From a virus (taxonomy: Duplodnaviria; Caudoviricetes): 57,122 nucleotides of DNA. Made by a program: the position numbers and the translations under genes. The notes beneath the pieces were generated by a model. That model saw only the letters and a program-made list of their open reading frames with translations. It had not been told where the DNA came from and made no database searches. The stretch covers positions 1 to 57,122 of the IMG/VR virus record IMGVR_UViG_3300005537_000315. One strand, given 5' to 3'. Numbering within the stretch: the first letter of the stretch is position 1; every line of letters starts with the position of its first letter. This document shows, piece by piece, positions 12,000 through 43,360 of this stretch.

Positions 12000-12556
12000 A
12001 AACAGATCCTTTTGAGAAAGTCGCTAACTAACTTATCGCACGTTTCGGGAAAAAAGTTTTTAAAGAAGCGCAATCGTTGCCCTGGAGTGAGCTTCGAGAT
12101 CATGCCTTCCGCATGATTGCACGACGGATGACAAAAACCAAAAACGTAGCCTGTCTTGTGATCGTGATGAAGATGTGGGGTTCTCTTTGTTTTCCAGTCC
12201 AGCACTCCTCCGCAACCTACACAGAACTTACTCGTTTTCATAAGATGCAAAAGTTTTTCCGGTGATATGTTCGGTATAACGTGCCCTCTTCGCTTTGCCT
12301 GTGTGTTAAACAACAGCAGCCTATTTTTCGCGAAACTAAAAGGCAAACATTTAAAACACCACACGCGACGAATGCCGTGTGCGCAAATGCTGCCGCCACC
12401 GCAGTCTTTGCATCCGCTTCTTTGCTTTTTGTGCTGGCACGTTTGGCTTCCGCCGCACTCAACGCATTGAATTTTTATTTTCTTATGTTCACAAGTTGCA
12501 GAGCCGCCACATTCGACACAGCGGCTCTTTCTTCTACCGTGCTTGCATTCACTCAT
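11996..12556 (-). CDS. endonuclease VII-like homing endonuclease inserted in the polymerase gene
   Basis: Repeated CxHxxxxxxCxxCGG zinc modules, then HLHHDHKTGYVFGFCHPSCN. Confidence 0.85.
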   Translation of the reverse strand: MSECKHGRRKSRCVECGGSATCEHKKIKIQCVECGGSQTCQHKKQRSGCKDCGGGSICAHGIRRVWCFKCLPFSFAKNRLLLFNTQAKRRGHVIPNISPEKLLHLMKTSKFCVGCGGVLDWKTKRTPHLHHDHKTGYVFGFCHPSCNHAEGMISKLTPGQRLRFFKNFFPETCDKLVSDFLKRICL

Positions 12557-13790
12557 GCTGTGCACTCCCAGGAGCGACGAAAACCGTTCTGATTACAGAT
12601 TTAATCACTTCAAGAACGTTTCCATACTTTTCAACAATTCCTTGGTAGTCTCTTCTGTAAATCAATCTGCGTGCATCTTTAAGGGTGTCTATGTCTTCAA
12701 AATCAGCGCCTTTAACCTTTTTTGGTTGAGAAGGCCGAGGCATATTGTGCAATTGAACGGATGATCCTGACCATCGTCCGCATCTACTGCTGCCTAGATA
12801 TATAAATTGATTTCTTAAACGCCCATCGGGACATAAATGTCTCTTTACGGCATCAAGTTTGGTGTAGCTGGTTGATCCAGCCGACAACCTCTCTTCTAGA
12901 ACCGCTCGGCATTCCGGTGTCATCGTGTACTGTATGTCGCCTAGAGCGGCTTCGACGAACGCTTTATTCAGCGTGTTGTACGGATAACCACGACTGCGTA
13001 CCCACGGTAATAGTTGATCACGAGAGTTTGAATTTTCCAAACCTGTGATGGCGTTTTGTTTTTCTAACGCGATACGTTTCGCTTCCGTCGCGATCCACAA
13101 CGCGGCTTCGACAAACTCAAGATCAACAGGCATGCCTCGATCATTAACGTTTTGATCGAACAACCACACGCGACGCTCAAAATCAGACATCGGCCACGCT
13201 TGCAGAATTTCTTCGCGGCGAAGCAGTTCTTCCTCGGCATCCACGTCTCGCATGCAATACGCGCCAAATTGCGACCACTCCGCAGGATGAGAATTCCAAT
13301 CGTTGAAATATGTGCGAGGGTCGGGATTTTTCTTGGTTTTCTTTTCGACTATGGGTTCACAGAAGAGATTAATGAGGGCTGCGCCGCGCTTATCTTTGGC
13401 TAGGTGCACGGGAACGTCTAGGATAGAGCACATCGACTCCAAGTCAGGAGGCAAGCACAAATAGCGGCCCGCCACCTGGGGGTCGATGAATCTATCCGGG
13501 GCAATCTTTTTGCCTAGCTGAAACCATAGAACATAGCGCTCGAACGCGCTGTTAAACGCTTCGATCTGCACGTTCGGATCGTCCAGAGCGTCGTTAAGGT
13601 CTTTAGGCATCGGGCCTTCATGCGGCATCCACAAACGACGACACGGCCCTGTGTCGCCTGGGAGTTTGTAGCCCTGCATCAAAACCGAGGTGGTCGGGTG
13701 CGTCATATAATTAAATAAGCCGACACCCGTGCTGCCGCCGATTAAGACGTGGCTACGTGTTTCGAAGTCCGTTTTAAGAACTTGAGTCAT
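12549..13790 (-). CDS. DNA polymerase family A, N-terminal (3'-5' exonuclease/thumb) half
   Basis: DFET, AFNSAFER, YCMRDV, GRWSGSSVQLHNMPR. It ends at IRTVFVAP, just before motif A. Confidence 0.92.
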   Translation of the reverse strand: MTQVLKTDFETRSHVLIGGSTGVGLFNYMTHPTTSVLMQGYKLPGDTGPCRRLWMPHEGPMPKDLNDALDDPNVQIEAFNSAFERYVLWFQLGKKIAPDRFIDPQVAGRYLCLPPDLESMCSILDVPVHLAKDKRGAALINLFCEPIVEKKTKKNPDPRTYFNDWNSHPAEWSQFGAYCMRDVDAEEELLRREEILQAWPMSDFERRVWLFDQNVNDRGMPVDLEFVEAALWIATEAKRIALEKQNAITGLENSNSRDQLLPWVRSRGYPYNTLNKAFVEAALGDIQYTMTPECRAVLEERLSAGSTSYTKLDAVKRHLCPDGRLRNQFIYLGSSRCGRWSGSSVQLHNMPRPSQPKKVKGADFEDIDTLKDARRLIYRRDYQGIVEKYGNVLEVIKSVIRTVFVAPGSAQHE

Positions 13791-18599: not shown

Positions 18600-19184
18600 T
18601 TAGATAGACCAATCAAAAACATCTTGTGGCCTACACAATTTGTTGAATCGTGAGAGATAGAGGAGTTTGTTCTGATGGAACGTCCTCTCCGTGATAATCA
18701 CGTCGGCAGCTTTCTCGTCGTCAGACCACTTGAACGTGAATTCTTTTGTCGGCATCAATTGTGCCTTTTCCGCGTATAGCATCCAGTTATCGACCGCTTT
18801 GATACAAGGTGGCTCATGCGGATCGAGTCCGTATTTAACGTAAATCAAATCCTGAATCACCTTCTCAACTTTTCGATACTCTAAACCAACGGGTGTGAAG
18901 TGCTTCAAAGGACGATTGACGTCGCTTATATAACTTTCACTGGCGTCGTGCAATAAAAATTTAAGCGCGTGTTCTCTATCGCTGGCGCAAGTGCAGTCTT
19001 CTGGACGAATAAAGCTACCCAGATACTCGTGCTGCGTCACAGGGTACGGAAATTTGCAATGTCCCGTGAATCGATTCATCTGACTTCCTGCGTGTGCGAT
19101 ATCCTCAATACAAATCATATCCATTATCGGACTGAGAATATCGAACATCTTGCCAGTGAACGTCTGAATCGTAGCTTGACTCAT
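18600..19184 (-). CDS. HD-domain deoxynucleotide phosphohydrolase (YfbR-like)
   Basis: IEDIAH...RFTGH...VTQH...LLHDASESYISD. Confidence 0.88.
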   Translation of the reverse strand: MSQATIQTFTGKMFDILSPIMDMICIEDIAHAGSQMNRFTGHCKFPYPVTQHEYLGSFIRPEDCTCASDREHALKFLLHDASESYISDVNRPLKHFTPVGLEYRKVEKVIQDLIYVKYGLDPHEPPCIKAVDNWMLYAEKAQLMPTKEFTFKWSDDEKAADVIITERTFHQNKLLYLSRFNKLCRPQDVFDWSI

Positions 19185-19185
19185 T

Positions 19186-19485
19186 TTATCCCTTCGCTAC
19201 TTTCTCCTCATAATGGCGCGGTGCAAATTGGCCGTTTGCTCTGAGGTTCTCCAAGGCCGAGATAGCGAGACCCGCGACCTTGATTAATTTCTGTTCTGCT
19301 TCGCTTGGCGGCGTTTTCATCTTGGCCGCATCGCCAGCATACATGACGATGTAGGCGACCCAATCGTTTAGTGTGTTTTTAGAATCGAACTCGGTGCCCC
19401 ACTTCTCACGAGAGTATTCAAGTTCTTTTTCAATGTCTCGATATAGATTGAGACGAACAGCCTGCCGTTCTTGTTCAAATGCCAT
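19186..19485 (-). CDS. hypothetical protein, possible MazG-like fold
   Basis: ELEYSREKWG...LIKVAGLAISALE. Confidence 0.5.
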   Translation of the reverse strand: MAFEQERQAVRLNLYRDIEKELEYSREKWGTEFDSKNTLNDWVAYIVMYAGDAAKMKTPPSEAEQKLIKVAGLAISALENLRANGQFAPRHYEEKVAKG

Positions 19486-20167
19486 GTAAGCCTCTCAAAT
19501 ATTCAACGTACGTGATCGCTAGCTCTCCAGTCAACGCCGCGTGCCCGTCCGAGTTAACGATCTTCAAATCCCACGCCCAACTGTCCAACGCTGTTTCGGA
19601 TATGTGATTCGCTGGGCGATCCGGCGCGACAAAAAGTGAACCGTCCGCGTTCAACCGCGTAACGTTGAAGGTGTACCCGCCCAAGTCCTTAACTGCTTGA
19701 GCCTCGTTCGGGAAGCGCGTGTCGGTGATCAAGGCCACGTCGGGGTTTTCTTTTTTGATTTGCGCGACGGTTTTATCTACCCAATAGTTCTCGCCAAAAC
19801 ATACGCGACGAAGGTCAGTGCCCCACCACTGAAGTAATGCGCCCCATTTACCGTACGGGGCAGCACCGCTCTTCGGAAGCGTCGGGGCTTCTAACACCCA
19901 TTTAGGAAGCCCGAATGGAATACCATCGACGAACACCGCGCCTTTTTCACGAAGTGCGTCTATTCCGCCAGCTTCCGCTATTGCGCCATTAGCCTCGGCG
20001 TACAACGCGTCGGCCCACTTGTAGATTTTGGCGTTAATGATCTTGGAGCCGATCTGCCCGTGCTTGTGAAACAGCTTCGCGTGCCTTTCGTAGTAATCCC
20101 GAACCGCCTCGCCTGCGGTGTCTTTCCCGTGCCTCGCTTTATTTCCAAACCCAATGACCAGTGTCAT
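19475..20167 (-). CDS. deoxynucleoside monophosphate kinase
   Basis: GNKARHGKDT P-loop, LQWWGTDLRR, ITDTRFPNE, HISE. Confidence 0.88.
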   Translation of the reverse strand: MTLVIGFGNKARHGKDTAGEAVRDYYERHAKLFHKHGQIGSKIINAKIYKWADALYAEANGAIAEAGGIDALREKGAVFVDGIPFGLPKWVLEAPTLPKSGAAPYGKWGALLQWWGTDLRRVCFGENYWVDKTVAQIKKENPDVALITDTRFPNEAQAVKDLGGYTFNVTRLNADGSLFVAPDRPANHISETALDSWAWDLKIVNSDGHAALTGELAITYVEYLRGLHGI

Positions 20168-23038: not shown

Positions 23039-23473
23039 CTATTGTATGGCACGAATTTTCTTTCGCTTTTCTTTCTCTATTCGTCTCAACATGAGACGGT
23101 GCTTCTTGGTGTTGACCTTGCCGGGATAGCCGTAGTGGGCGTAACCGAGAGCGGTCGTCGCCGGGGGCGTCTGCACGTAGGCCAGGAGATTGCGAACGAA
23201 TTCAACGAAGGACACAGACTCTTGCCTGTGCATGCCTAGGCGAACCCAGGCATTTTCTAGCTTGCCTAGGATCGGGTTACACTGCGAACAAAGAAGTCCT
23301 CGGAACAGCCCGTCTAAGTGAGAGTGATCGGTAGCTAAGCGCTTACCTGTATGGCACGGTCGACCGCACAACGCGCAAACGCCGCGTTGATACGTGTTGA
23401 CAGTTTCCCATTTTTCGATGGTCAGCTTAAAGCCATCCATCAAACGCTTGGCGCGTGCTTTATCGTTCTCCAT
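23039..23473 (-). CDS. endonuclease VII family protein
   Basis: QRGVCALCG...LATDHSH..GLFRGLLCSQCN. Confidence 0.88.
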   Translation of the reverse strand: MENDKARAKRLMDGFKLTIEKWETVNTYQRGVCALCGRPCHTGKRLATDHSHLDGLFRGLLCSQCNPILGKLENAWVRLGMHRQESVSFVEFVRNLLAYVQTPPATTALGYAHYGYPGKVNTKKHRLMLRRIEKEKRKKIRAIQ

Positions 23474-25305: not shown

Positions 25306-26622
25306 TTAGCCCCAGGCTACTGTCTTGAGAAACTTTTTCAAATCCACCGCTTCTTTTTGTGCGACCTTCTTGGCGGCTACTTCTTCCGCCGTTGGTTGCA
25401 CCGTCGCGCGAGTAATCATGGTCTGCTTGACTTCGTCGCGAACTTCATGTCGCTTTACGGAAGCTTTGAACGGTGCCACCGTCTGGCCTTGTTCCCAGCC
25501 CATATCGTTCGATGCGAAGTAGGCCAGAACGTTGTTGCCTTGCTTCATTTTGTAAAAGTGTGTCACGCCAAAATCTGATTCGTACGTGTTGGTGTAGACC
25601 ACGAGTACATTCTCGAAAATCATGCGCTCGCCAACCACGCCGACGAACTCAGAATTCTTGTCAGACTCGATCCGGGCATTGCGGCGAATAGTGCGTTCTT
25701 TCTCTCGGGAATAAGCACTGATTGCGGAGACCGCGTATCCGAATTCCTTAGAACGAATAGCCGTTGTGCGAGACAGAAGAGACAGGTTGTACAAGTAGTC
25801 GTCTGTCGTGTTCGCGTCGATTGTGCCCAGCCATTCCATCGTCTCGGCGACTAGGGCTTTATCCTCTTCGCTCACCGTCAGCTTATGTTCGAAATTTTCG
25901 CGAGTCTTGGGGCCACCAAACATCCAATCTCGTGTGCGCTGCGCCGTCGAAGTTTTGTCGAACTCACGCGCCGACTTCCCAGACAGCCAGCCATATTGAC
26001 GGATAGCAGATGCGCCGATTTCGAGCACTTCAGACATCAAGTAGCGATCCAGCGCAGAAGAGCCGCCACCGCCAAAACCTTCATCCTCTGCCATCCCCAT
26101 CAAATCATCCGCGTCGATCAAAATCTGTGCTAGTTCTGCGAGAGTCTCGGGATTCGTCAGTCCCAGATAATACGCGAGACAGTTGCGACCGATTTGGCGA
26201 AAACCATTTTCGTTCGCAATCACGAACGTTTCAAGACGGCGACGGTGCGTCTTGCAGTGGTCACAGTAATTGTCTGCGTTGCGGAAGTGCTCAGGAATAC
26301 TGCCCTCGAATCCAGGAACTTGACGCATGACATTGCCCAAGAGATTACCGTTTTCATCGAACGCAGGCGACAGCACAGCGGCAAACTCATACCCGTTGAT
26401 CTTGGGGCGACCTTCAGACCGGAGAGTCACAGAGTAGATGCGGCGCACCACTTTGACATATTCGTCGAACTCATTCAGCTTGCTATGCGTTTCCTCGCGG
26501 TACTCACCAACCGTCATCACAGGCGCGGCAATTTTGGCGCGATTGCAGCGGCGCGTCAGCCTGTCCATTTGCACCCGTAGCTTATCGAGATTCTGCTCGG
26601 GAACTTGGTAGGTGTTTTCCAT
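25306..26622 (-). CDS. hypothetical protein, possible C-terminal OB-fold
   Basis: 438 aa, CDHCKTHRRR, C-terminal SEFVGVVGER beta-rich region, own promoter. Confidence 0.8.
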   Translation of the reverse strand: MENTYQVPEQNLDKLRVQMDRLTRRCNRAKIAAPVMTVGEYREETHSKLNEFDEYVKVVRRIYSVTLRSEGRPKINGYEFAAVLSPAFDENGNLLGNVMRQVPGFEGSIPEHFRNADNYCDHCKTHRRRLETFVIANENGFRQIGRNCLAYYLGLTNPETLAELAQILIDADDLMGMAEDEGFGGGGSSALDRYLMSEVLEIGASAIRQYGWLSGKSAREFDKTSTAQRTRDWMFGGPKTRENFEHKLTVSEEDKALVAETMEWLGTIDANTTDDYLYNLSLLSRTTAIRSKEFGYAVSAISAYSREKERTIRRNARIESDKNSEFVGVVGERMIFENVLVVYTNTYESDFGVTHFYKMKQGNNVLAYFASNDMGWEQGQTVAPFKASVKRHEVRDEVKQTMITRATVQPTAEEVAAKKVAQKEAVDLKKFLKTVAWG

Positions 26623-26628: not shown

Positions 26629-26656
26629 AGTCTACGCTTATCCTCGCCAGTGTCAA
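26629..26656 (-). promoter_or_regulatory. sigma70-like promoter
   Basis: TTGACA-16-TAGACT just upstream of the ATG at 26622. Confidence 0.6.
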
Positions 26657-26669: not shown

Positions 26670-26903
26670 CTAGGACTCTAGCTCTGTCATCGCTTCAAAC
26701 GTTCGTACTAGGTCTGAAACATCAGCCTCGGGTAACTCATCTACGGTCGGCCACATTTCAGGTTTAGTACTGGTAATCACCTGAATCATTTTGTCGATTC
26801 TATCCATTGGTATCCTTTGCATTTCTAAATTTTGTCGAGCCTCCTGCCGCCTGGGCAAATACTGCCTGGGGTGTGGATTTTTGCGTCCTGGGCCTTCAGT
26901 CAT
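26670..26903 (-). CDS. hypothetical protein
   Basis: 77 aa ORF directly after the large structured RNA. Confidence 0.45.
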   Translation of the reverse strand: MTEGPGRKNPHPRQYLPRRQEARQNLEMQRIPMDRIDKMIQVITSTKPEMWPTVDELPEADVSDLVRTFEAMTELES

Positions 26904-27405
26904 GCTGCCTACCTTTCGAGTAGGCCACCTAGCTCCCCTTCACCTTCGCAGGTCGTTTCTAAGGCAGTGATAACGGCTCGGTCGAACCCTTTGCCCTGAT
27001 TCACGCTGGCTCACAGCCCGTGTTCCCATTGTGACGACTGTGCATTTCTGCCTTTTGCGTCACGGGTAACGTTTTCTCGGGTGACATGCCTCTGCGCTCA
27101 GTCGCCGTGGTTCTCTACTACTTCCGACGAACTCACATCGAGTGTGAGCGCTTGCCGGAAAATCGGTTTTGGTGAGTAGCCCGAGGTAGGCGCGGATGAG
27201 TCGCCTCGTTCTCAGTGTTATGCTCCCCCCGCCAGGATTCGAACCTAGGTCTTCCGCGTAGTGTTTGCAAGTGTCTAGGGCACTTTGGTGAAGACCTAGA
27301 AGCTTCACCGCATCACGTACGGACGTTCTAAACCGCTAAACTACGGGGGGCCAGTTTGAATGGCTCCCTAACACTCCTGAGCCACTCACCAAAACCAATT
27401 TACAA
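26900..27405 (-). ncRNA. candidate large structured RNA containing a tRNA-like domain (27224-27350)
   Basis: 7-bp acceptor stem, D arm, TTCGAAT T-loop, 23-bp enclosing helix, many further hairpins, no credible ORF. Confidence 0.7.
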
Positions 27406-27409
27406 ATTC

Positions 27410-27438
27410 AGCTTACATGAAACACAAAACCTTGTCAA
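27410..27438 (-). promoter_or_regulatory. sigma70-like promoter of the structured RNA
   Basis: TTGACA-17-TAAGCT with an A-rich UP element. Confidence 0.7.
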
Positions 27439-27586
27439 GCACTTTTTTCAATTTTTTCGTCTTCGGGCTTTTGCCACAAGTTCTCAAGGTTTTGTTGAAA
27501 ACGCTTCTCTTCCTCTTCGACGCGACGGCTTGCCTGAAGTTCAAAATACCTATCAATCCAATCCAGAATTTTATTAAACGGCCACA

Positions 27587-27802
27587 TTACCGCTTCCTCC
27601 CTTTGTTCTGTGCTTCTCGACTAGCTCGGCACGCATCGCAGCGCGTCCTACGTTCTGCCTTGCGTGTGCAGCATCGAAGGCACCAAAGTTTTTCCTGGGG
27701 GCCTCCGTTCAAAGCTTGGACGCGCAAACGCTCGTTATCGTCCCTGAATCCTGCACGTCGAAAACGCGTTGGCAAGGCGAGGGTCACAACCCGCGTCTCC
27801 AT
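27587..27802 (-). CDS. hypothetical zinc-finger protein
   Basis: CLRC and CDAC. Confidence 0.5.
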   Translation of the reverse strand: METRVVTLALPTRFRRAGFRDDNERLRVQALNGGPQEKLWCLRCCTRKAERRTRCDACRASREAQNKGRKR

Positions 27803-27978
27803 GTTCCCATAAGCTGATTCGCGATTGCACCAAAAAATTCGCTGCCCAGGTAACCCTGCACGTACAGTCCAGCTTTCACGGCGTGAAGCGCTGCCTCGTC
27901 GAGAAGCATAATCAGCTTACACAAATTCTGGCGCTCCTCTTCGGTCTTCGGTATATTGACTGCCATTCCTATTTGCAT
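27784..27978 (-). CDS. hypothetical protein
   Basis: GGAGG RBS, TAATG coupling. Confidence 0.6.
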   Translation of the reverse strand: MQIGMAVNIPKTEEERQNLCKLIMLLDEAALHAVKAGLYVQGYLGSEFFGAIANQLMGTWRRGL

Positions 27979-28485
27979 TATGGTTTTCCTCCTTCCTTCA
28001 TTGAAAAGAACTTATCAGGGACGCAGGTCGCCGTATCGCTACAATAAAACGCCTTGTATGGTGTGCCTTCGATGTCGGCATACATCAGCCCGGAATTCTT
28101 GCGCGATCCGCACGCGAGGCACTGCACGATACAAGGTATCGAGTCCGGGCTGTCCATCGGAATTAAGAGCATATTCTCCAGCCTTCTTGACGCATGCGCG
28201 TCACGTCCTGTTTCCAACACGTTTGTAGCCATTCGCAAAAAATATCGAAGTGTGCGTACGATATTACCAATACCCGCAAGCCTGTGGGCAGTTTATACGT
28301 GCCTATCCATCTTCTGTCTTCCTTCTTAATCGTGACCCGCATTCGTAACATTTAGCGTACCGCCCTCCGGTAGAACTGAATAAGAAACAGACCGACGCGG
28401 CCAATTATCCAGCCGCGTGCTTGCAGCCGCTCGGCTTGCTTGAGTCCCTTGAGAGTGCTCGTGTCAACTGTACGGTATTCAATCC

Positions 28486-28957: not shown

Positions 28958-28996
28958 ATCATACGCTTCTGAGTACCGAAGTCAATGGTACGAATG
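28958..28996 (-). promoter_or_regulatory. promoter with partial upstream box
   Basis: CATTCGTACCA-TTGACT-16-TATGAT. Confidence 0.65.
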
Positions 28997-29678: not shown

Positions 29679-29729
29679 ATCATACTCCAGCGAGTTTAGA
29701 AGTCAATGGTACGAATGGCCTAGTACTTT
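29679..29729 (-). promoter_or_regulatory. promoter with upstream AAAGTACTAGGCCATTCGTAC box
   Basis: TTGACT-16-TATGAT. Confidence 0.7.
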
Positions 29730-30755: not shown

Positions 30756-30812
30756 TGTGCTGTCCTCCAGCCTGGGAGCCTATCACAAACACCTGAAGAA
30801 GTCAAGAGTTTT

Positions 30813-35809: not shown

Positions 35810-35839
35810 TTGACAAGTCGCCATCTTTCGTAGTAAGAT
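35810..35839 (+). promoter_or_regulatory. promoter of the tRNA array
   Basis: TTGACA-18-TAAGAT. Confidence 0.7.
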
Positions 35840-35851: not shown

Positions 35852-35928
35852 GGCGGATGAGGCGAAACAGGTGACGCGCTCGACTGTGAATCGGGCTAGA
35901 GTGGGTTCGAGTCCCATCGTCCGCCCCA
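35852..35928 (+). tRNA. tRNA-His(GTG)
   Basis: Cloverleaf, G-1, CCA. Confidence 0.92.
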
Positions 35929-35949
35929 AAACATTTTTGAAGAAAGCTC

Positions 35950-35978
35950 TTGACAGAATTCCAAATCCATGATAGGCT
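35950..35978 (+). promoter_or_regulatory. second promoter in the array
   Basis: TTGACA-17-TAGGCT. Confidence 0.65.
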
Positions 35979-36001
35979 TCTTTTGAGAGTGAGGGCTGCT
36001 C

Positions 36002-36148
36002 ATGAAAAAGATTGCAGTCACGGATTCGTTGAAAGACCTGAAGTTGAAGGTCGGTGATAAAGTGGAGTTGTTCAAGAGGGTCTGGCAGTACGGCGAAACG
36101 ACCGATAAGAACGGCAAGGTCTCATCGCGCTATCTCGACCCGCTCTAA
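36002..36148 (+). CDS. small hypothetical protein
   Basis: GAGG RBS, MKKIAVTDSLKDLKLKVGD. Confidence 0.5.
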   Translation: MKKIAVTDSLKDLKLKVGDKVELFKRVWQYGETTDKNGKVSSRYLDPL

Positions 36149-36215
36149 AGTTTTTACGAGTTCTCAACTGGCGGCCCTTGCTGGAGGTTTAAATCCTTCA
36201 ACCCCGACCAATTTT

Positions 36216-36353
36216 ATGATTTGTCAACGTTGTCATCAAGAAAAAGCAACAGTCGTGCCTCGTCTCAACCCGTACGATGAAGATGTACGTGGGGAACAGA
36301 ACGAAGAGATTCTTTGCGACGGATGCTACGACGCGTTGTGTGACGAGATTTAA
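36216..36353 (+). CDS. small zinc-finger protein
   Basis: CQRC...CDGC. Confidence 0.55.
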   Translation: MICQRCHQEKATVVPRLNPYDEDVRGEQNEEILCDGCYDALCDEI

Positions 36354-36354
36354 T

Positions 36355-36439
36355 CCGCTGCTGGTGGAACGGCAGACACGTCAGTCTTAGAAACTGATGC
36401 CCTTGTGGCGTGGGAGTTCGAATCTCTCGCGGCGGACCA
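36355..36439 (+). tRNA. tRNA-Leu(TAG)
   Basis: Cloverleaf with V arm, CCA. Confidence 0.92.
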
Positions 36440-36445
36440 AGTTTT

Positions 36446-36531
36446 GCGCGTGTGGCGGAATGGCATACGCAGGGGACTTAAAACCCCCGGCCCGAAAGGG
36501 ATTGTGAGTTCGACTCTCGCCTAGCGCACCA
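36446..36531 (+). tRNA. tRNA-Leu(TAA)
   Basis: Cloverleaf, two acceptor mismatches. Confidence 0.88.
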
Positions 36532-36625
36532 AGTTTTACGAGCGTGATTGGCAGACGTGCCAGTCCTCGGCCATCGACGGATGGTTTGAGTTTAAGCCCA
36601 GCACGCAACACTGGCTGGCAGATCA

Positions 36626-36724
36626 GACGGAGACCTTGGTTCGAATCCAAGTTGGTTCAATGAGCGTGGTCGGCCTTGCATGAGGCGCGTCTCGAACCTG
36701 TCGTCTAGAGGATAGGACGCCGTC
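36626..36724 (+). ncRNA. circularly permuted tRNA-like RNA (YrlA-like topology)
   Basis: T arm precedes D arm, and GACGG/CCGTC closes the structure. Confidence 0.7.
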
Positions 36725-36732
36725 AAAAATTT

Positions 36733-36807
36733 AGCCCTGTCGTTCAACGGACAGGACACACGGCTTCTACCCGTGTAATCTCGGTTCGAATCCGAGTGGG
36801 GCTACCA
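36733..36807 (+). tRNA. tRNA-Arg(TCT)
   Basis: Cloverleaf, CCA. Confidence 0.92.
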
Positions 36808-36968
36808 ATCTTCCCGTGTCGTGGGATACGTCGGCACATATCATGATTCGCTACGCGTTGTTCCGTGGCGAGAGGAAACAGACTTTCTCGATCCGTCTCT
36901 TTGGAATCGCATATACGGATCGAACGACGCGATACGGCAACACGAAGAGCGCGTCGTTGGTTTTAAGT

Positions 36969-37043
36969 GGACTGTTCGTTCAACGGATAGGATAGTGGTC
37001 TACGAAACCACGGATAGAGGTTCGAATCCTCTACGGTCTACCA
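36969..37043 (+). tRNA. tRNA-Arg(ACG)
   Basis: Cloverleaf, CCA. Confidence 0.92.
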
Positions 37044-37049
37044 GATTTT

Positions 37050-37124
37050 GCACCTGTCGTTCAATGTACAGGACTCGGCCCTCCGAAGGCCGTGATCTGG
37101 GTTAGATTCCCAGTGGGTGCTCCA
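37050..37124 (+). tRNA. tRNA-Arg(CCG)
   Basis: Cloverleaf, variant T-loop TTAGATT. Confidence 0.88.
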
Positions 37125-37127
37125 GGT

Positions 37128-37189
37128 TTGATGCATCAAGGGAAGGGATGCCCTAACACCCCAACCCACTCTTTAGGGAGAGTGAGATG
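37128..37189 (+). promoter_or_regulatory. kissing-loop leader of HNH gene (copy 1)
   Basis: Loops CCCTAA/TTAGGG, SD inside hairpin 2. Confidence 0.8.
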
Positions 37190-37567
37190 AAAATCTGTAG
37201 TCGATGTATTTTGTCGAAACACGAGAAAGATTTTTATACCCAAAGCGGCAGGTCGACAAAAATGTCTTGGTGTAAGGCCTGTTTGAAAGATTACAGGTCT
37301 GAGACTCAACTCGCTAATAAAAAGAGGGCAGTTGAATTATTGGGTGGGAAATGCGTTCGCTGTGGGTATTCGAAATGTTTGGGTGCCTTAGAATTTCATC
37401 ACGTAAACCCAGCAGACAAGTCCACGTACACGGGACTTAAAAACAGAAGTTGGAACACGATATCGGAAGAAATTAAAAAGTGTATTCTTCTATGTGCTAA
37501 TTGTCACAGAGAAGAGGAAGAGAAATTAAGGCCACGTAGCGCAGCGGACAGCGCAACTCTTTCCTAA
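37187..37567 (+). CDS. HNH endonuclease
   Basis: CVRCGY...LEFHH...EEIKKCILLCANCHRE. Confidence 0.9.
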   Translation: MKICSRCILSKHEKDFYTQSGRSTKMSWCKACLKDYRSETQLANKKRAVELLGGKCVRCGYSKCLGALEFHHVNPADKSTYTGLKNRSWNTISEEIKKCILLCANCHREEEEKLRPRSAADSATLS

Positions 37568-37605
37568 AGAGTGGGTCGTGAGTTCGAATCTCACCGAGGC
37601 CTCCA
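37530..37605 (+). tRNA. tRNA-Arg(CCT)
   Basis: Cloverleaf, overlapped by the HNH 3' end. Confidence 0.9.
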
Positions 37606-37718
37606 GATTTGAGCGGTGGGTAGCGAGTGGCTAACCAGTGATTCGGGCCGGAGTAGGGCGTGAAACTCGCCAACGTGTCGCGCAGCGGACAAGGCTCAGG
37701 CGCTCAAAAAGTTTACGT

Positions 37719-37805
37719 GCCTTTGTGGTGGAACAGGCAGACGCGCCGCACTCAAAACGCGGTGGGCTAACGCCCGTGTCAGTTCGAGTCTGACCAGAGG
37801 CACCA
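37719..37805 (+). tRNA. tRNA-Leu(CAA)
   Basis: Cloverleaf with V arm, CCA. Confidence 0.92.
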
Positions 37806-37811
37806 AAGTTT

Positions 37812-37886
37812 GCACAGATCGACAAGTGGCTAAGTCAATCGTCTGCAAAACGATTACCGTGAGTTCGAATCTCACTCTGTGCTCCA
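37812..37886 (+). tRNA. tRNA-Cys(GCA)
   Basis: Cloverleaf, U73, CCA. Confidence 0.92.
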
Positions 37887-37888
37887 AG

Positions 37889-38209
37889 TTGGTTGTCCAG
37901 ATGTTCGCGAAGGTCCGATCCCTTCGAGGAAGTTCAGGACACGAGTCAACACCGTGCCGTGGAAGTTGCGGGACGCGTAAGCGTACGGGTAAGCCTCGGT
38001 AGTGGACTGGGTAACGCACTCGAAAGAGTCGAGCACCAGCACCACTCATTGGAGCCGAGACAATCCACACGAGTGCAACTGCAAATAGGCGCAGAGGACT
38101 TTGTTGGCGTTCAGTGACAGCGCGGGTAGCAGGCTTCGCCTTCGGGCGACTAGAGAGGAATGAACGTCACCGCGTAAGCGGAAACAGAATCCTGGCTACG
38201 GACGACCAA
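37889..38209 (+). ncRNA. rnpB: RNase P RNA (bacterial type)
   Basis: P1 GGTTGTCC/GGACGACC, P2 ATGTTC/GAACGT, P3 GAAGG/CCTTC. CR-I GAGGAAGTTCAGGA pairs with CR-V ACAGAATCCTGGCTA to form P4 with a bulged U. Also GTGCAACTGCAAATAGG and AGAGGAATGA. Confidence 0.9.
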
Positions 38210-38210
38210 A

Positions 38211-38582
38211 GTGATGGGCAAGAAAGAAGATCAAGCTAAGTGGTATAGAAACCACCGAGAAAAGCACATGGAAAACTGTGCTGCTCGAAAAGCAGAACAG
38301 ATTGTTCGAAATCAGCAAATGATTATCGACTATTTGTTGCAGCATCCTTGCCTCGATTGTGGTGAAACAGATATAATGGTTCTTCAATTTGACCACGTTC
38401 GCGGAGAGAAGAGAGACGACATGAGTCGTTTGCTTTCGTTCTCAGAGAAAACGGTTCGTGAAGAAATTGAGAAATGTGAAGTACGTTGTGCTAATTGTCA
38501 TCAAAGAAAGACGGCAGAACGAAAACAAAGCTATAAGGTTCTATGGGTCGCAGGTGTTAGCGGCAACATTCCTCCCTCTTAA
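38211..38582 (+). CDS. HNH endonuclease
   Basis: HPCLDCGE...LQFDHVRG...EEIEKCEVRCANCH. Confidence 0.9.
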   Translation: MMGKKEDQAKWYRNHREKHMENCAARKAEQIVRNQQMIIDYLLQHPCLDCGETDIMVLQFDHVRGEKRDDMSRLLSFSEKTVREEIEKCEVRCANCHQRKTAERKQSYKVLWVAGVSGNIPPS

Positions 38583-38620
38583 GGAGCGAGTTCCGAGTTC
38601 AAGTCTCGGGCAACCCACCA
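38545..38620 (+). tRNA. tRNA-Lys(CTT)
   Basis: Cloverleaf, atypical positions 8-9, overlapped by HNH. Confidence 0.82.
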
Positions 38621-38623
38621 AGT

Positions 38624-38672
38624 TTTGTCAACTTATAGGTTGACGTTTGACAACTGTTTGTCAACTTATAAG
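38624..38672. repeat. TTTGTCAACTTATA direct/inverted mini-repeat spacer
   Basis: Two direct copies plus inverted GTTGAC and TTGACAA. Confidence 0.75.
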
Positions 38673-38680
38673 TGTACAGT

Positions 38681-38755
38681 GGGCTGCGGATGCGAGCGGC
38701 AGCAATGGGGCCTTTTAAGCCCAATGTCCGAGTTCGAGCCTCGGGCGGCCCACCA
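38681..38755 (+). tRNA. tRNA-Lys(TTT)
   Basis: Cloverleaf, atypical D region. Confidence 0.82.
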
Positions 38756-38763
38756 AAAGTTTT

Positions 38764-38839
38764 AGCCGACTAGCAAACTGGTCGTATGCGCCTCTCCTAC
38801 AAAGAGGTGGGCACGGTTCGATTCCGTGGTTGGCTACCA
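38764..38839 (+). tRNA. tRNA-Val(TAC)
   Basis: Cloverleaf, C at position 33. Confidence 0.88.
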
Positions 38840-38929
38840 AGTTCTGTGGGAAGAGTGACGGGATGTCCCAGATCGTATGCTGGGGTGCTGCCCCGTAATG
38901 GGTAACCATCCCCCGTCTTCTCAGCCTTT

Positions 38930-39019
38930 AGTCGGTAGCATGGGTATGCAGCGCGGCCTTATAAACCGCGAGCACCCGATTAGTGCGCCGAGTCGGTTCG
39001 AGTCCGACACCGACTACCA
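38930..39019 (+). tRNA. non-canonical tRNA with TAT anticodon (Ile?) and long V arm
   Basis: AGTCGGT/ACCGACT acceptor, tiny D arm, CTTATAA loop, GCAC/GTGC V arm, CCA. Confidence 0.75.
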
Positions 39020-39026
39020 AGTTTGT

Positions 39027-39100
39027 GGGGTTATCGTTTAGTGGCAGGACGCTCGGTTCTCAGCCGAATAGCCGGGGTTCGAATCCCCGTAGCCCTACCA
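39027..39100 (+). tRNA. tRNA-Glu(CTC)
   Basis: Cloverleaf, CCA. Confidence 0.9.
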
Positions 39101-39109
39101 AGTTTCAGC

Positions 39110-39185
39110 GGAGTTATCAGCTAGCGGCCTAGGCTGCCACCCTTTCAAGGTGGTCACATCGGTTCGAATCCGATTAGCTCTGCCA
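39110..39185 (+). tRNA. tRNA-Glu(TTC)
   Basis: Cloverleaf, CCA. Confidence 0.92.
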
Positions 39186-39200
39186 ATTTTAGGAGTGAAC

Positions 39201-39296
39201 ATGAGCGGACAGCTTGCAGTTATTTTCGGAGCGATTGCCGCAGCGGTGGCACTCGTGGTATACTTGCTGAACAAGTACGTGACGAAGAGCAAGTAA
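39201..39296 (+). CDS. small single-pass membrane peptide
   Basis: AGGAG RBS, MSGQLAVIFGAIAAAVALVVYLLNKYVTKSK. Confidence 0.55.
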   Translation: MSGQLAVIFGAIAAAVALVVYLLNKYVTKSK

Positions 39297-39452
39297 TGAG
39301 TTTTCAAGATTGGTTAGAGAAGCATCCGAAGATTCAAAACGTTGTTGAGTTTTTTGTTTTCATCGCGGAAGTGACCGCGTCGCCGTTCATCGACTTGTAT
39401 AATCGAGTCGCCGTGAAGTTCGGCTGGAAGGTCTATCAGTAAAAGTTTTCGT

Positions 39453-39528
39453 GGGCAGTTAGTAGCAACTGGGAAAACGCCTCGCTTGCACCGAGGAGTT
39501 GAGGGTTCGAATCCGTCACCGTCCACCA
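39453..39528 (+). tRNA. tRNA-Ala(TGC)
   Basis: Cloverleaf with G3:U70. Confidence 0.92.
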
Positions 39529-39538
39529 AATTTTATGT

Positions 39539-39612
39539 AGTCGGTTCGTTCAACGGTAGGACCGTTGCCTGATTAGCGACTGATGAGGGTTCGATTCCTT
39601 CACCGACTACCA
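39539..39612 (+). tRNA. tRNA-Ile(GAT)
   Basis: Cloverleaf, U at position 37. Confidence 0.88.
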
Positions 39613-39629
39613 AGTTTTTAGGAGAAGAG

Positions 39630-39830
39630 ATGGCCGCAAATTCAAACATTCCAGCAGTGAACGCAAAGAATCTTGCGCTGTCAAACGATACGGCGCTGGA
39701 TGTGAAAGCGATTGAATTGGAAGATACGGAGATCGTGAAGGCATTGGTGGCTAACCCGAATCGCCCTGACGCTGGAAAGCTGAACGCAAGACGCGGCTCG
39801 ATAGCAACGGCCAAAAAGAATCACGAATAA
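39630..39830 (+). CDS. hypothetical protein
   Basis: AGGAG RBS. Confidence 0.6.
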   Translation: MAANSNIPAVNAKNLALSNDTALDVKAIELEDTEIVKALVANPNRPDAGKLNARRGSIATAKKNHE

Positions 39831-39843
39831 GAAAGATTTTAAT

Positions 39844-39921
39844 TGCGGGTTAGCACTTCTGGTGAAGTCACCTGTCTCATAAGCAGGTCTAGGCTGGGTT
39901 CGATTCCCGCATCCGCAACCA
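39844..39921 (+). tRNA. tRNA-Met(CAT)
   Basis: Cloverleaf, CTCATAA loop. Initiator, elongator or Ile2 identity is unresolved. Confidence 0.85.
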
Positions 39922-40096
39922 TCTTGACACATCGGTTTCGCTGGTGAGACGCTAAGGTCGTCGACGACCAAGCTGGCGAGACTTTATCGGTTGAAGCGCG
40001 GGTTGCTTATAACAATCTGGGCATTCATAGCCTGACCAGCCCTCATTGAAAAGGCGTTCGGTTCGAAACGTTTTCCTTGGGGAATACAGTTTTTGA

Positions 40097-40170
40097 GCGG
40101 GTGTGGTGTAACGGTAGCACCTCATTATTCCAAGTTGAGTGTCGGGGTTCGAGTCCCCGTACCCGCTCCA
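40097..40170 (+). tRNA. tRNA-Gly(TCC)
   Basis: GCGGG acceptor, U73, weak anticodon stem. Confidence 0.85.
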
Positions 40171-40257
40171 AGTTCGAACGCACACGTTCCTTGCCGTCGT
40201 ACGGCGGTTGTGTGGTAACCAGTTGAAGAGGACGATAACACTGGTGTAAATTTCTGA

Positions 40258-40331
40258 GCGAGTTTGGCGTAGTGGTAGCGTGGAACCTTGCCAAGGTTCA
40301 GGCGCGGTTTCGATTACCGCAATTCGCTCCA
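40258..40331 (+). tRNA. tRNA-Gly(GCC)
   Basis: Cloverleaf, CCA. Confidence 0.92.
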
Positions 40332-40339
40332 AGTTTTGA

Positions 40340-40415
40340 GCATGGTTCGTCTAGCGGTTTAGGACATCCGGCTTGTACCCGGAGAACGTAAGTTCGAATC
40401 TTACACTTTGCTCCA
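40340..40415 (+). tRNA. tRNA-Thr(TGT)
   Basis: Cloverleaf, CCA. Confidence 0.9.
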
Positions 40416-40423
40416 AGGTTTAT

Positions 40424-40672
40424 ATGCCCAACGAATTTCTTTACTCCATAGCCCATAAGGCTCGTAAAGGCCCAAAGATAACGATGGGCAAAGGCATGCA
40501 GAGAGTTGAAACGCCTGACCCGATGCGCGGCGTGACTGATCCAGCGAAGTTGTTGAAGTCGGACACCCAGCGCATAGATAGGAACGTCGGCACTCCTGAT
40601 TTGATGTGGCAGAGGTCTCCCGCGACAGGGTCTTCGTCCGATGCAGCGGGACTGGAAATAAAAAAGATTTGA
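40424..40672 (+). CDS. hypothetical protein
   Basis: ORF exactly fills the gap between two tRNAs. Confidence 0.55.
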   Translation: MPNEFLYSIAHKARKGPKITMGKGMQRVETPDPMRGVTDPAKLLKSDTQRIDRNVGTPDLMWQRSPATGSSSDAAGLEIKKI

Positions 40673-40746
40673 GCACTGTTGATCTAATGGCATGATGCGG
40701 CCCTCGTAGCGCCGACGCCGTGGTTCGATTCCACGACGGTGCTCCA
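40673..40746 (+). tRNA. tRNA-Thr(CGT)
   Basis: Cloverleaf, CCA. Confidence 0.88.
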
Positions 40747-40753
40747 AGTTTGA

Positions 40754-40827
40754 GCAGGGATGATGTAATGGTAGCCTAGTTCCTTGGTAAGGAACCTGTC
40801 CGGGTTCGAGTCCCGGTTTCTGCTCCA
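40754..40827 (+). tRNA. tRNA-Thr(GGT)
   Basis: Cloverleaf, CCA. Confidence 0.9.
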
Positions 40828-40835
40828 AATTTTAC

Positions 40836-40923
40836 GGAGAGGTTCGGTAGCGGCAAACTAGGCAGGCTGTAACCCTGCCGTCCCTTGCGGACTTCCAAGG
40901 TTCGAGTCCTTGTCTCTCCACCA
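40836..40923 (+). tRNA. tRNA-Tyr(GTA)
   Basis: Cloverleaf with V arm. Confidence 0.92.
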
Positions 40924-41061
40924 GTTTCTACGGGGGTGTGTGAGTAGCTCTCACATCCGTAGCGAGCAGAGTGCGACGCGATCTCGGCAGAGATCGAACG
41001 GCACGTAACGATCTGACTGCACGATGCGGATTGCTGCATCCCCACCGATTTAGTTTTCTGT

Positions 41062-41136
41062 TGTAGGTTCGTCTAACGGTAAGACGGGGCACTGTTAATG
41101 CCTACGATGAAGGTTCGAATCCTTTGCCTACAGCCA
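41062..41136 (+). tRNA. tRNA-Asn(GTT)
   Basis: Cloverleaf, G73. Confidence 0.92.
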
Positions 41137-41145
41137 ATTTTCTTT

Positions 41146-41220
41146 TCACGATTAGCTCCAACGTAGAGCGGCTCCCTGTTAAGGAGAAGGTTCTTGGTTC
41201 AAGTCCAAGATCGTGAGCCA
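41146..41220 (+). tRNA. tRNA-Asn(GTT), second divergent copy
   Basis: Cloverleaf, G73. Confidence 0.9.
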
Positions 41221-41228
41221 TTTTCAGC

Positions 41229-41304
41229 AGGGAAGTCGTATAGCGGCCATTACGTACGTCTCCAAAACGTTAAGACGGGAGTTCGAGTCTCTCCTCCCCT
41301 GCCA
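41229..41304 (+). tRNA. tRNA-Trp(CCA)
   Basis: Cloverleaf, G73. Confidence 0.9.
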
Positions 41305-41306
41305 TT

Positions 41307-41370
41307 TTGAACGTTCAATTGGGTGGGCGACGCCGACACGTCGCCCCTCGCCTTGTCGGAGGCCGAGATG
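41307..41370 (+). promoter_or_regulatory. kissing-loop leader of HNH gene (copy 2)
   Basis: Loops CCGACA/TGTCGG. Confidence 0.8.
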
Positions 41371-41793
41371 AACCTGTGTCAAGTAGAAGGCTGCAATAGA
41401 GAAGTTGGTTTTCATTTAAGAAAGACCTGCTCCCAAGAGCACAAGGCCCTATACAGGCAGCAATTTGACCGTGGGCGATATGCTCGGCTGAGAGATAAAG
41501 TCTTAGAACACTACGGCAAAAAGTGCGTTTGTTGCGGTGAGACTAGAAAAGAATTTTTGGCTCTCGATCATAAAAATGGTGAAGGTCAAAAACATAGAAG
41601 AGAGTTAGGTGGCGGTGCCTTTAGAATGTATCGATGGGCGGTCAGAAACGGCTATCCTGATACATTTCAAATTCTTTGCCATAATTGTAATATGGCACTT
41701 GGATGTTGTGGCTATTGTCCGCATCAAAAAGAAAAGACCGAACAGAGGGCTTCTACAGAAGGCGGTCATTCGGACGGTAGTGCTCTGAACTGA
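41368..41793 (+). CDS. HNH endonuclease
   Basis: CVCCGETRKEFLALDHKNGEG...LCHNCNMALG..GYCPH. Confidence 0.9.
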   Translation: MNLCQVEGCNREVGFHLRKTCSQEHKALYRQQFDRGRYARLRDKVLEHYGKKCVCCGETRKEFLALDHKNGEGQKHRRELGGGAFRMYRWAVRNGYPDTFQILCHNCNMALGCCGYCPHQKEKTEQRASTEGGHSDGSALN

Positions 41794-41814
41794 GCCGTTC
41801 GTAAAGGTGCCCTT

Positions 41815-42651
41815 ATGAGACGTGTGCTGTCTGTGCTTTTAGCGATGGTTCTTTCTGTTGCGCCTGCGTTTGCAAACGTCAAAGATTTGAAAGGCTTTGA
41901 CAAGAAGGTTTACGACGGCGCTCTTGCGTTGTACGCGAGTTCGCACGACCTGGGCATTCGTGATCGTTTTATTTGCACGGTTCAAGTCATCAGTAAAGCT
42001 GGCGACCGAGGCTACTATTTGTTGGGCGCAGGACATTGCACCCCGGCGAATCCCGATTTGCCGAAAGACATGGAGTTCTCAGTCGCCGAAGATATCAACG
42101 GGTCGTTAACTCCCGTGACGTTGCTTCAATCAGCGATGAACGAACCGCTTGATTACGCTGAGTATTATTTGCGCACCGACAAGAAGTATCCAGTCACGCC
42201 GCTCGGAGACGAGGGCGATGCTCGCATCGGCGACCAAACGATTGACGTCAACTTCAGTCTTGCTCTAGGCAAGTTCGCAAGTAACGGTCGCGTCTCTTCT
42301 AAAGTAGCTCAAAGCGGAGAGATGAAAGGGTTTTTCGGCGTCGACGAATTCGATTCTCATGGCGCATCTGGAAGTTCGGTTGTCGACAAGCGCACGAAGA
42401 AAGTCATCGGTATCGTGATCGCTGGTGTGGATGGCGCTACGGTTTCTACCTGGGTCGAGCCGATATCAGTGATTAAGAAAGAGCTAGCAAGGGTGACCTT
42501 GCCTCGTTCAACAAAACCGTACGTTCGTTCGAAGTCCCCAGTATCCGTGCCTAGTGTGGACGACAGCATGCCTAAGCTGCCAGTGGGTACGCCAGAAACG
42601 GCCCCTGCTATCGGCGTGGTGGCTGATCAAAACAAGCACTATGATGAGTGA
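41815..42651 (+). CDS. secreted trypsin-like serine protease
   Basis: Signal peptide ending APAFA, catalytic GAGHC, DYA, HGASGSSV. Confidence 0.82.
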   Translation: MRRVLSVLLAMVLSVAPAFANVKDLKGFDKKVYDGALALYASSHDLGIRDRFICTVQVISKAGDRGYYLLGAGHCTPANPDLPKDMEFSVAEDINGSLTPVTLLQSAMNEPLDYAEYYLRTDKKYPVTPLGDEGDARIGDQTIDVNFSLALGKFASNGRVSSKVAQSGEMKGFFGVDEFDSHGASGSSVVDKRTKKVIGIVIAGVDGATVSTWVEPISVIKKELARVTLPRSTKPYVRSKSPVSVPSVDDSMPKLPVGTPETAPAIGVVADQNKHYDE

Positions 42652-42835
42652 TTATCGTGAGATGAGAAAGTGGCGCAGGCTAGCGATTGCGTCCTTCTTA
42701 GCGTTCTTGTTTACTGGCTTGGTCAGCATGTGGCAGAATCATGTGATTCAAGTTCAACGCAAACAGATATTCGAACTTTGGGACGCGTATCAAAGTGTTG
42801 CGCACGGTTGTGGCGACAAGAATTTTGTTCTATAA
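42644..42835 (+). CDS. small membrane protein
   Basis: Hydrophobic segment LAIASFLAFLFTGLV, start approximate. Confidence 0.5.
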   Translation: MSDYREMRKWRRLAIASFLAFLFTGLVSMWQNHVIQVQRKQIFELWDAYQSVAHGCGDKNFVL

Positions 42836-42839
42836 TTTT

Positions 42840-42926
42840 GGATCAGTGGCGAAATTGGTAGACGCAATAGTTTGCTAAACTATCAACCGAAAGGTTGTGG
42901 GGGTTCGAGTCCCTCCTGATCCGCCA
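42840..42926 (+). tRNA. tRNA-Ser(GCT)
   Basis: Cloverleaf with V arm. Confidence 0.92.
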
Positions 42927-42930
42927 GTTT

Positions 42931-43021
42931 GGAGAGCAGCACTGAATGGTCGGTACTCGTCTCGAAAACGATGACGCGTTCGAAAGGGCGCGACAGAGTT
43001 CGATTCTCTGGCTCTCCTCCA
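42931..43021 (+). tRNA. tRNA-Ser(CGA)
   Basis: Cloverleaf with long V arm, atypical D region. Confidence 0.85.
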
Positions 43022-43032
43022 GTTTTGTGTTA

Positions 43033-43123
43033 GGAAGGCGGCGAGCGATGGCGTTCATCCGTCTTGAAAACGGCGACACGTTCGAGAGGGCGTGACTCGG
43101 TTCGATTCCGGGGCCTTCCTCCA
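43033..43123 (+). tRNA. tRNA-Ser(TGA)
   Basis: Cloverleaf with long V arm, atypical D region. Confidence 0.85.
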
Positions 43124-43124
43124 T

Positions 43125-43198
43125 CCTCGCTTGGTGTAGTGGTTGCACTCCTGTTTGAAACACATGAAGTCGTGGTTCGATTCCACGGGCGAGGGCCA
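43125..43198 (+). tRNA. tRNA-Phe(GAA)
   Basis: Cloverleaf, CCA. Confidence 0.88.
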
Positions 43199-43206
43199 TT
43201 TTCTGA

Positions 43207-43270: not shown

Positions 43271-43279
43271 ATTTTCTGT

Positions 43280-43355: not shown

Positions 43356-43360
43356 AGTTT

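Follow-up and report, generated by a model that had tools for sequence, protein, structure and literature searches.

YrlA, a bacterial Y RNA-like RNA that does not decode, is built of a tRNA-like domain and a long terminal stem; its termini enter through the anticodon-stem side, and its acceptor end is closed. In rRNA operons, leader and trailer form stalks in which a long, near-perfect duplex flanks a stable RNA, and these stalks are substrates of RNase III. tRNA scaffold design puts an RNA of interest in the place of a tRNA's anticodon arm and so stabilises it in vivo.

Here we analyse a locus on the minus strand of a 57-kb viral contig (the whole stretch of DNA studied, hereafter the window; estimated completeness 54%), in which a promoter is followed on its 3′ side by about 596 nt without a conserved open reading frame (ORF). 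Our best reading, adopted tentatively and a little short of even confidence, is that these bases specify a tRNA mimic that is processed but does not decode, forming a cassette at the 5′ end of a leader that is conserved and structured. Like YrlA as it is commonly described, the RNA would possess a long stem joining its 5′ and 3′ ends and a tRNA-shaped domain, but here the domain keeps the canonical order and it is the acceptor end from which the stem continues; a scan of 70 ORFs gave no Ro/TROVE protein. The flanking duplex is similar to that of the rRNA stalks, except that it encloses a single tRNA-like RNA and that its cleavage is a prediction. The GOLLD and ROOL RNAs are likewise large non-coding phage regions in tRNA-bearing genomes, whereas the present region matches no model of these classes, is modular and measures only about 600 nt. 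In outline, engineered tRNA scaffolds have the same architecture, a structured RNA grafted on the anticodon stem of a tRNA (PMC3753655); those are laboratory constructs, while the present sequence is natural, and a full-text literature search gave no natural phage tRNA with such a structured insert.

Results

A shared promoter precedes a region without conserved ORF

The locus lies within the early and replication gene block of the contig, whose features are collected in Table 1. The protein of 438 aa encoded downstream has 106 relatives, the closer ones including P0003–P0008 with 75–87% identity, and 132 loci surrounding such genes were compared with the window. By nhmmer and blastn, DNA similarity to the region is confined to one of the 132, L003, whose protein is 91% identical. 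The sequence-only reading had proposed that a strong promoter fires into a region with no credible ORF, and this description is borne out at the level of the sequence: the promoter is present in the sequence, it belongs to a promoter family of the window, and no reading frame is shared with L003. A generic consensus scan omits the promoter because its −10 hexamer, TAAGCT, agrees with TATAAT at 3 of 6 positions only. The pattern TTGACW-N16-18-TANNNT, of which it is a member, has 11 occurrences in the window, where shuffled sequences give 1.79 ± 1.31, and one of these sites directly precedes the first tRNA of the tRNA cluster. In several sites of the family, the −10 position reads TGATAGGCT or TGATAGGGT. 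From the position of the promoter, transcription likely starts at about 27403–27401, at the foot of the stem described below. Among the public sequencing runs listed, none of RNA contains the region; one DNA run contains it in full and may be the sample of origin.

The promoter is contained in a block of 58 nt (27457–27400) that is 91% identical in L003, and the DNA on either side of this block is unrelated. The genes located 5′ of the shared promoter (27435–27587 on the minus strand of the window; 1–315 in L003) are unrelated between the two phages and alike only in a few terminal codons (…EKSA) that overlap with the −35 region.

Table 1. Positions of the features discussed, in window coordinates, with the basis of each assignment.
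Feature	Position	Strand	Basis or remark
Sigma-70-type promoter, TTGACA-17-TAAGCT	27438-27410	minus	sequence
Second promoter, TTGACA-16-TAGACT, before the 438-aa gene	26629..26656	minus	scan, promoter family
Sites of TTGACW-N16-18-TANNNT	9784-9812, 19505-19534, 26629-26656, 27410-27438, 28958-28985, 29679-29706, 30777-30805	minus	
Sites of TTGACW-N16-18-TANNNT	19176-19203, 27956-27984, 35810-35839, 35950-35978	plus	
Clamp stem, 5′ arm	27369..27401	minus	MFE pair list, inverted repeat I1, duplex energy against shuffles
Clamp stem, 3′ arm including side hairpin 27187-27213	27160..27220	minus	MFE pair list, duplex energy
Swappable cassette, no counterpart in L003	27163..27398	minus	nhmmer and blastn breakpoints
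tRNA-shaped RNA	27224..27350	minus	Rfam RF00005, 46.5 bits, E 8.5e-7 in the whole window
54-nt insert in place of the normal anticodon loop	27263..27316	minus	Rfam alignment, ARAGORN, constrained fold, I2
Conserved non-coding module 2	26808..27162	minus	comparison with L003
First hairpin of module 2, UUUUCCGGC...GUCGGAAG, with inner CUCACAC/GUGUGAG-type stem	27121..27161	minus	RNAalifold, MFE fold
Hairpin domain, outer 6-bp helix 27064-27070 with 27022-27027	27022..27070	minus	two compensatory changes against L003
Small ORF, 45 aa	26670..26807	minus	AAGGA Shine-Dalgarno 5 nt upstream; C-terminal half conserved in L003
438-aa gene	25306..26622	minus	PHROG 2319, family of unknown function
Endonuclease_7/HNH ORFs	23039-23473, 5411-6169, 11996-12565	minus	
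Endonuclease_7/HNH ORFs	45901-46320, 54031-54486, 48288-48824	plus	
Gene content of the contig: terminase, SU10-type portal, primase-polymerase, UvrD-like helicase			

A long stem clamps a tRNA-like RNA

A 23-bp helix with G-U wobbles (27379–27401 with 27160–27182) and an AGUGUUA/UAACACU pairing had been proposed to clamp the tRNA-like domain. The helix is exact, with 23 contiguous pairs of which three are G-U, and the 7-bp helix is found after 3 further pairs, so that the MFE fold contains a stem of 33 bp in total (23 + 3 + 7), formed around a side hairpin and enclosing the Rfam tRNA match. The duplex of leader and trailer has an energy of −52.6 kcal/mol, compared with −30.6 ± 4.1 in 1000 shuffles (minimum −49.2), and the cassette folds with a z-score of −4.22, none of 200 shuffles being equally stable. 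Cofolding of the stem gives −55.2 kcal/mol on the transcribed strand and −43.6 on the other strand, an advantage that is due to the three G-U pairs. By the stem energy and the Rfam match, both the clamp and the tRNA-like fold inside it are real. At the DNA level, the arms of the cassette are terminal inverted repeats of 21 nt with 90% complementarity, as in MITE-like elements. The multiple or dispersed copies that such a mobile element would have were not found: the arms occur at a single site in the window, and the 3 single-arm matches found in the viral collection carry no further similarity.

The match of the enclosed RNA to the tRNA model exceeds the gathering threshold of 29 and spans model positions 1–71. 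Its four stems are intact and paired throughout (acceptor 7 bp, D 4 bp, anticodon 5 bp, T 5 bp), its T loop reads UUCGAAU and its D loop contains GG; in cloverleaf order, stems, T loop and D-loop GG it is the same as canonical tRNA (RF00005) and as the tRNA-Thr(UGU) of the phage. Reading of the sequence places U8, A14, G15, C48, G18, G19, U54, U55, C56, A58, G26, A44 and G53-C61 all in position, and the pairs U8-A14, G15-C48, G18-U55, G19-C56, U54-A58, G26-A44 and G53-C61, which we take to be the usual tertiary pairs of tRNA, can all form. In contrast with canonical tRNA, the strands of the anticodon stem are separated by 61 nt rather than the normal 7 (63 nt against 9 in the Rfam alignment, counting the last stem pair and the loop), U33 is absent and CCA is not encoded: A73 is followed by GCA, whereas CCA is encoded by 32 of the 32 other tRNAs of the window. 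A host enzyme may add CCA to the RNA. These 32 tRNAs form a cluster on the plus strand (35853–43789), while the tRNA-like RNA lies on the opposite strand, about 8.5 kb away, with a promoter and a 33-bp stem of its own. At positions 8–31 it matches the phage tRNA-Thr(UGU) (40340–40415) at 20 of 24 bases, the next best tRNA reaching 13 of 24. This match points to an origin by duplication, and the tRNA-like RNA is probably derived from the phage's own tRNA-Thr(UGU).

When the cloverleaf is imposed, the insert is predicted to form a pair of hairpins at a three-way junction. Complementarity over ten bases links the insert to the strand that comprises the tRNA's own variable loop and T stem (inverted repeat I2). 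The unconstrained fold of the 127-nt RNA uses this pairing and reaches −46.9 kcal/mol, against −32.7 for the cloverleaf.

The sequence CTAG occurs 113 times in the window, about half as often as expected (223). Inside the tRNA-like RNA, a stretch of 52 nt contains three copies (27245, 27275 and 27296), and the unrelated cassette of L003 described below has five (374, 509, 649, 658 and 670).

We considered whether the RNA is a decoding tRNA from which an intron of 54 nt is spliced. ARAGORN, which misses the RNA in normal mode, calls exactly such a tRNA in intron mode, and Asp and Pro tRNAs are missing among the 32 encoded in this half-genome. We nevertheless regard this explanation as extremely unlikely, on several grounds. 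Firstly, the formal splice produces the loop ACACUAC, with C at position 33, and U33 is unavailable for any 7-nt loop that the RNA could form. Secondly, the formal anticodon is ACU (Ser), yet the long variable arm of bacterial tRNA-Ser is lacking. Thirdly, ARAGORN sets the intron at its positions 34–35, inside the anticodon, whereas tRNA introns usually lie after position 37. Fourthly, 54 nt are far too short for a group I intron, no Rfam intron family matches at E ≤ 10, and a Pfam scan of 70 ORFs gave neither an RNA ligase nor a splicing enzyme. A suppressor tRNA based on CUA in an insert loop was rejected as well: TAA, TGA and TAG end 20, 19 and 9 of 48 long ORFs, so that all three stop codons are in normal use and a suppressor is not called for.

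The Rfam searches returned no other family. Between 26400 and 27700, nothing except tRNA matches at E ≤ 10, apart from one sub-threshold CRISPR-repeat match (E 0.92). The analogy with GOLLD and ROOL drawn in the sequence-only reading fails, since neither class reaches E ≤ 10 in this interval or the gathering score in the whole window; the group I intron and tmRNA models that it had named for checking are equally unmatched, and the tmRNA mode of ARAGORN is empty. At gathering score, Rfam finds nothing in 20 related loci.

The clamped cassette is exchanged as a unit in L003

In L003, the promoter block is retained, and similarity resumes at 27162 and continues from there, with about 340 nt at ~93% identity. 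In the place of the cassette, it carries 352 unrelated bases (351–702) with no ORF of note. At either end, the limit of this non-homologous segment falls no more than 3 nt from that of the unit enclosed by the stem. Local alignment of the two cassettes gives a score of 18, compared with 17.8 ± 2.2 in shuffles, and the L003 cassette shows no similarity to any other locus and no Rfam match at E ≤ 1. It folds as a chain of hairpins (z −2.3), including one perfect palindromic hairpin on CCUAGG. A relaxed ARAGORN match in this cassette was discarded, since 225 of 300 shuffles also give one.

Since L003 swaps the cassette but keeps the promoter and the downstream 340 nt, the two halves evolve as separate modules. 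The region had been proposed to encode a single structured RNA of about 500 nt, of unknown class, and the swap contradicts this. On the evidence of the window and L003, we think it possible, somewhat below an even chance, that a promoter-driven non-coding RNA of about 600 bases is composed of two separable modules, the clamped tRNA-like cassette and a conserved leader. It may still be argued that the whole ~600 nt form one large ornate non-coding RNA of a new class, of which the tRNA-like domain is an integral part. There is one promoter and no ORF until 26807; stretches of 521 nt and 594 nt are more stable than their shuffles (z −2.96 and −2.56); and 14 nt at the 5′ end (27397–27410) are complementary to 26818–26831, just before the ribosome-binding site (inverted repeat I3). 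L003, however, removes the tRNA-like half wholly and keeps the rest, and the low z-scores originate from the cassette stem, module 2 alone having a z-score of −1.12. With, in addition, no GOLLD, ROOL or other Rfam match, and a module 2 model that is empty in 96 further sources and in 5 related contigs, we judge the single large RNA improbable.

The comparative basis is two full sequences for the leader (window and L003) and one for the cassette. No homologue of the cassette was found in the 132 related loci, in 5 whole related phage contigs or in pattern scans of the viral collection; the latter gave only the 3 single-arm matches mentioned above, which we attribute to chance, the other scans being empty. 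A blastn search of the phage collection with 1.1 kb of the region gave no match. In the pattern scan of the genome collection, one 22-nt match in a Hymenobacter contig was judged to be due to chance and set aside. The 5 related phage contigs contain 110 tRNA matches, none longer than 89 nt, and so no comparable insert. As no cassette homologue exists in the collections searched, nothing shows that the cassette is under selection. Four related phages (G001–G004) have 25–28 tRNA matches each, in one cluster apiece. G003, a complete relative, has in addition a solitary partial tRNA match far from its cluster (G003:C1:19936-19992, minus strand; 29.5 bits, model positions 6–65).

The cassette might hence be functionless debris, that is, a duplicated tRNA gene with an insertion in the anticodon loop, lodged in a fast-changing slot downstream of a strong promoter, with the stem as a leftover inverted repeat. 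In agreement with this, the cassette is a singleton that neither the nearest relative nor any collection searched contains; it lacks an encoded CCA and U33; an alternative fold is favoured over the cloverleaf by a predicted 14 kcal/mol; and the genome is mosaic, with five Endonuclease_7-domain ORFs and one HNH ORF. Against it, pairing is complete in all four stems of the tRNA and the positions of the tertiary pairs are intact, each of the three mismatches in the 23-bp helix is a G-U pair in the transcript, and the cassette begins at the predicted transcription start. Nor does the window contain a second copy of the arms (a single site is found at up to 3 mismatches) or a visible target-site duplication. 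Taking both sides together, we consider debris unlikely.

Module 2 is conserved and leads into a small ORF

Downstream of the cassette, module 2 differs from L003 by 22 substitutions over 336 nt (93.5% identity) and by indels of 4 nt and 1 nt. In the neighbouring gene, the identity to L003 is 0.945, 0.954 and 0.702 at codon positions 1, 2 and 3, respectively. No frame is open across module 2 in both the window and L003. The one candidate, an ORF of 77 aa at ATG 26903, is not conserved, as expected from a region described as devoid of credible ORFs: the ATG is AAG in L003, and the 1-nt indel also shifts the frame. Because its identity lies above the 70% of third positions and no frame is shared, module 2 is, by this sequence comparison, non-coding and conserved well beyond synonymous sites. 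Instead of selection, a recent exchange of the segment within this mosaic genome could also account for such identity. The small ORF beside it shares only ~50% identity with L003.

Module 2 runs directly into a ribosome-binding site and the ORF of 45 aa (ATG 26807). Since it continues into the Shine-Dalgarno sequence and the small ORF, it may be a 5′ leader; we consider that it is most likely a cis-acting leader and not a free-standing RNA. Searched against 98 sources, a covariance model of its first 179 nt recovers the two sequences used for training and nothing else, the next matches having E-values of 1, 2.9 and 9; it matches none of the 5 related whole contigs.

The many helices noted downstream of the tRNA-like domain stand as complementary stretches, but the 333 nt that contain them fold no better than chance, 14 of 100 shuffles being as stable. 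Individual helices behave differently in the comparison. The UUUCCGGC/GUCGGAAG helix has one pair-keeping change in L003 (G-U to G-C), as has the GCCUAC/GUAGGC helix (C-G to U-G), whereas the GGCGACUG/CAGUCGUC helix gains an A-A mismatch there. The ACCU/AGGU hairpin loses 2 of its 4 pairs in a third contig, a low-depth contig of 253 nt from another soil sample, which covers 26860–27022 with 21 differences and 4 gaps. The consensus fold of module 2 contains two compensatory changes (RNAalifold columns 97:143, U-A to C-G, and 101:140, C-G to U-A) and four one-sided pair-keeping changes, with 0 broken pairs, and RNAalifold gives an equal tally of kept pairs on the opposite strand. In the MFE fold of the window, 1 pair is broken by the substitutions of L003, compared with 7.0 ± 1.7 when the same substitutions are randomly placed and with 8 in the opposite-strand fold. 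With the MFE fold of L003 itself as reference, 3 pairs are lost on each strand. When energies are compared without reference to a structure, the result is non-significant: random substitution sets are as good as the real one in 9.5%, 7%, 43% and 68% of cases. Regarding the structural conservation in related phages to which the sequence-only reading had tied its proposal, two sequences and a fragment give a divided answer for the downstream half.

Conservation of module 2 might instead reflect an element acting at the DNA level, such as a replication origin or a recombination site. The region is located among replication genes (those for the primase-polymerase, the UvrD-like helicase and the OB-fold protein), and the two compensatory changes are symmetrical between strands. 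Yet there are no iterons or notable direct repeats, module 2 has no AT-rich stretch (GC 51–56%), the conserved promoter points into the region, and the count of broken pairs in the window MFE folds favours the transcribed strand. We find a DNA element very unlikely.

Neighbouring genes

The protein of 438 aa belongs to no Pfam family and has no sequence match in the PDB. Its structure is modelled confidently (mean pLDDT 85.5); the fold matches are weak and mostly to OB-fold single-strand-binding proteins (best E 0.009), and its viral matches are uncharacterised save one annotated as an ssDNA-binding protein. With OB-fold domains in the model, it is possibly a single-stranded-DNA-binding protein. 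Elsewhere in the contig, a GroES-like Cpn10 co-chaperonin is encoded at 739–1038 on the minus strand. The five Endonuclease_7-domain ORFs and the HNH ORF amount to an unusually high load of homing-endonuclease-like genes for 57 kb, and this load fits the mosaic structure seen in the comparison with L003.

Discussion

The anatomy of the locus, its tRNA match and stem, the modular swap and the sequence conservation are direct observations; transcription, processing and the functions of both modules we infer as follows. An early phage promoter would start a non-coding transcript of about 596 nt, made of two independent modules. Module 1, the first ~240 nt, would be a self-contained cassette in which a leader-trailer stem of 33 bp surrounds a tRNA paralogue. 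Host RNase III would cut the long stem, and RNase P and 3′ trimming would then act on the tRNA body. The released product would be a stable, tRNA-shaped RNA unable to decode, which may act as a mimic or as a scaffold displaying the insert, and these cleavages would also define the 5′ terminus of the downstream RNA. Module 2, the next ~355 nt, would serve as a partly structured leader before the ORF of 45 aa, upstream of the OB-fold gene.

A bolder proposal, to which we give a rather low probability, is that the slot is a cassette site for interchangeable self-folding RNAs on a constant RNA of 340 nt, occupied here by a natural tRNA scaffold that displays an active two-hairpin RNA of 54 nt. In such a slot, processing and stability would be provided by the tRNA body together with the RNase III stalk, and the insert might, for example, serve as a decoy for a defence nuclease of the host that targets tRNAs, or for some other factor that binds tRNA. 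The ten complementary bases would then let the RNA switch between a tRNA-like and a rod-like fold.

If the cassette is merely a disabled tRNA copy, it is ordinary, and the remainder of the locus is a conserved but narrowly distributed leader before a small ORF and an OB-fold gene. If, as we tentatively favour, it is expressed and processed as a non-decoding tRNA mimic, the tRNA scaffold of the laboratory would have a counterpart in nature, and a phage tRNA paralogue would have been turned to non-decoding use. The cassette would then bear on the role of tRNA-shaped RNAs of phages, for instance against host systems that attack tRNAs. The presence of two unrelated, ORF-free cassettes at the same position suggests a site at which phages exchange RNA modules, as they do protein-coding accessory genes.
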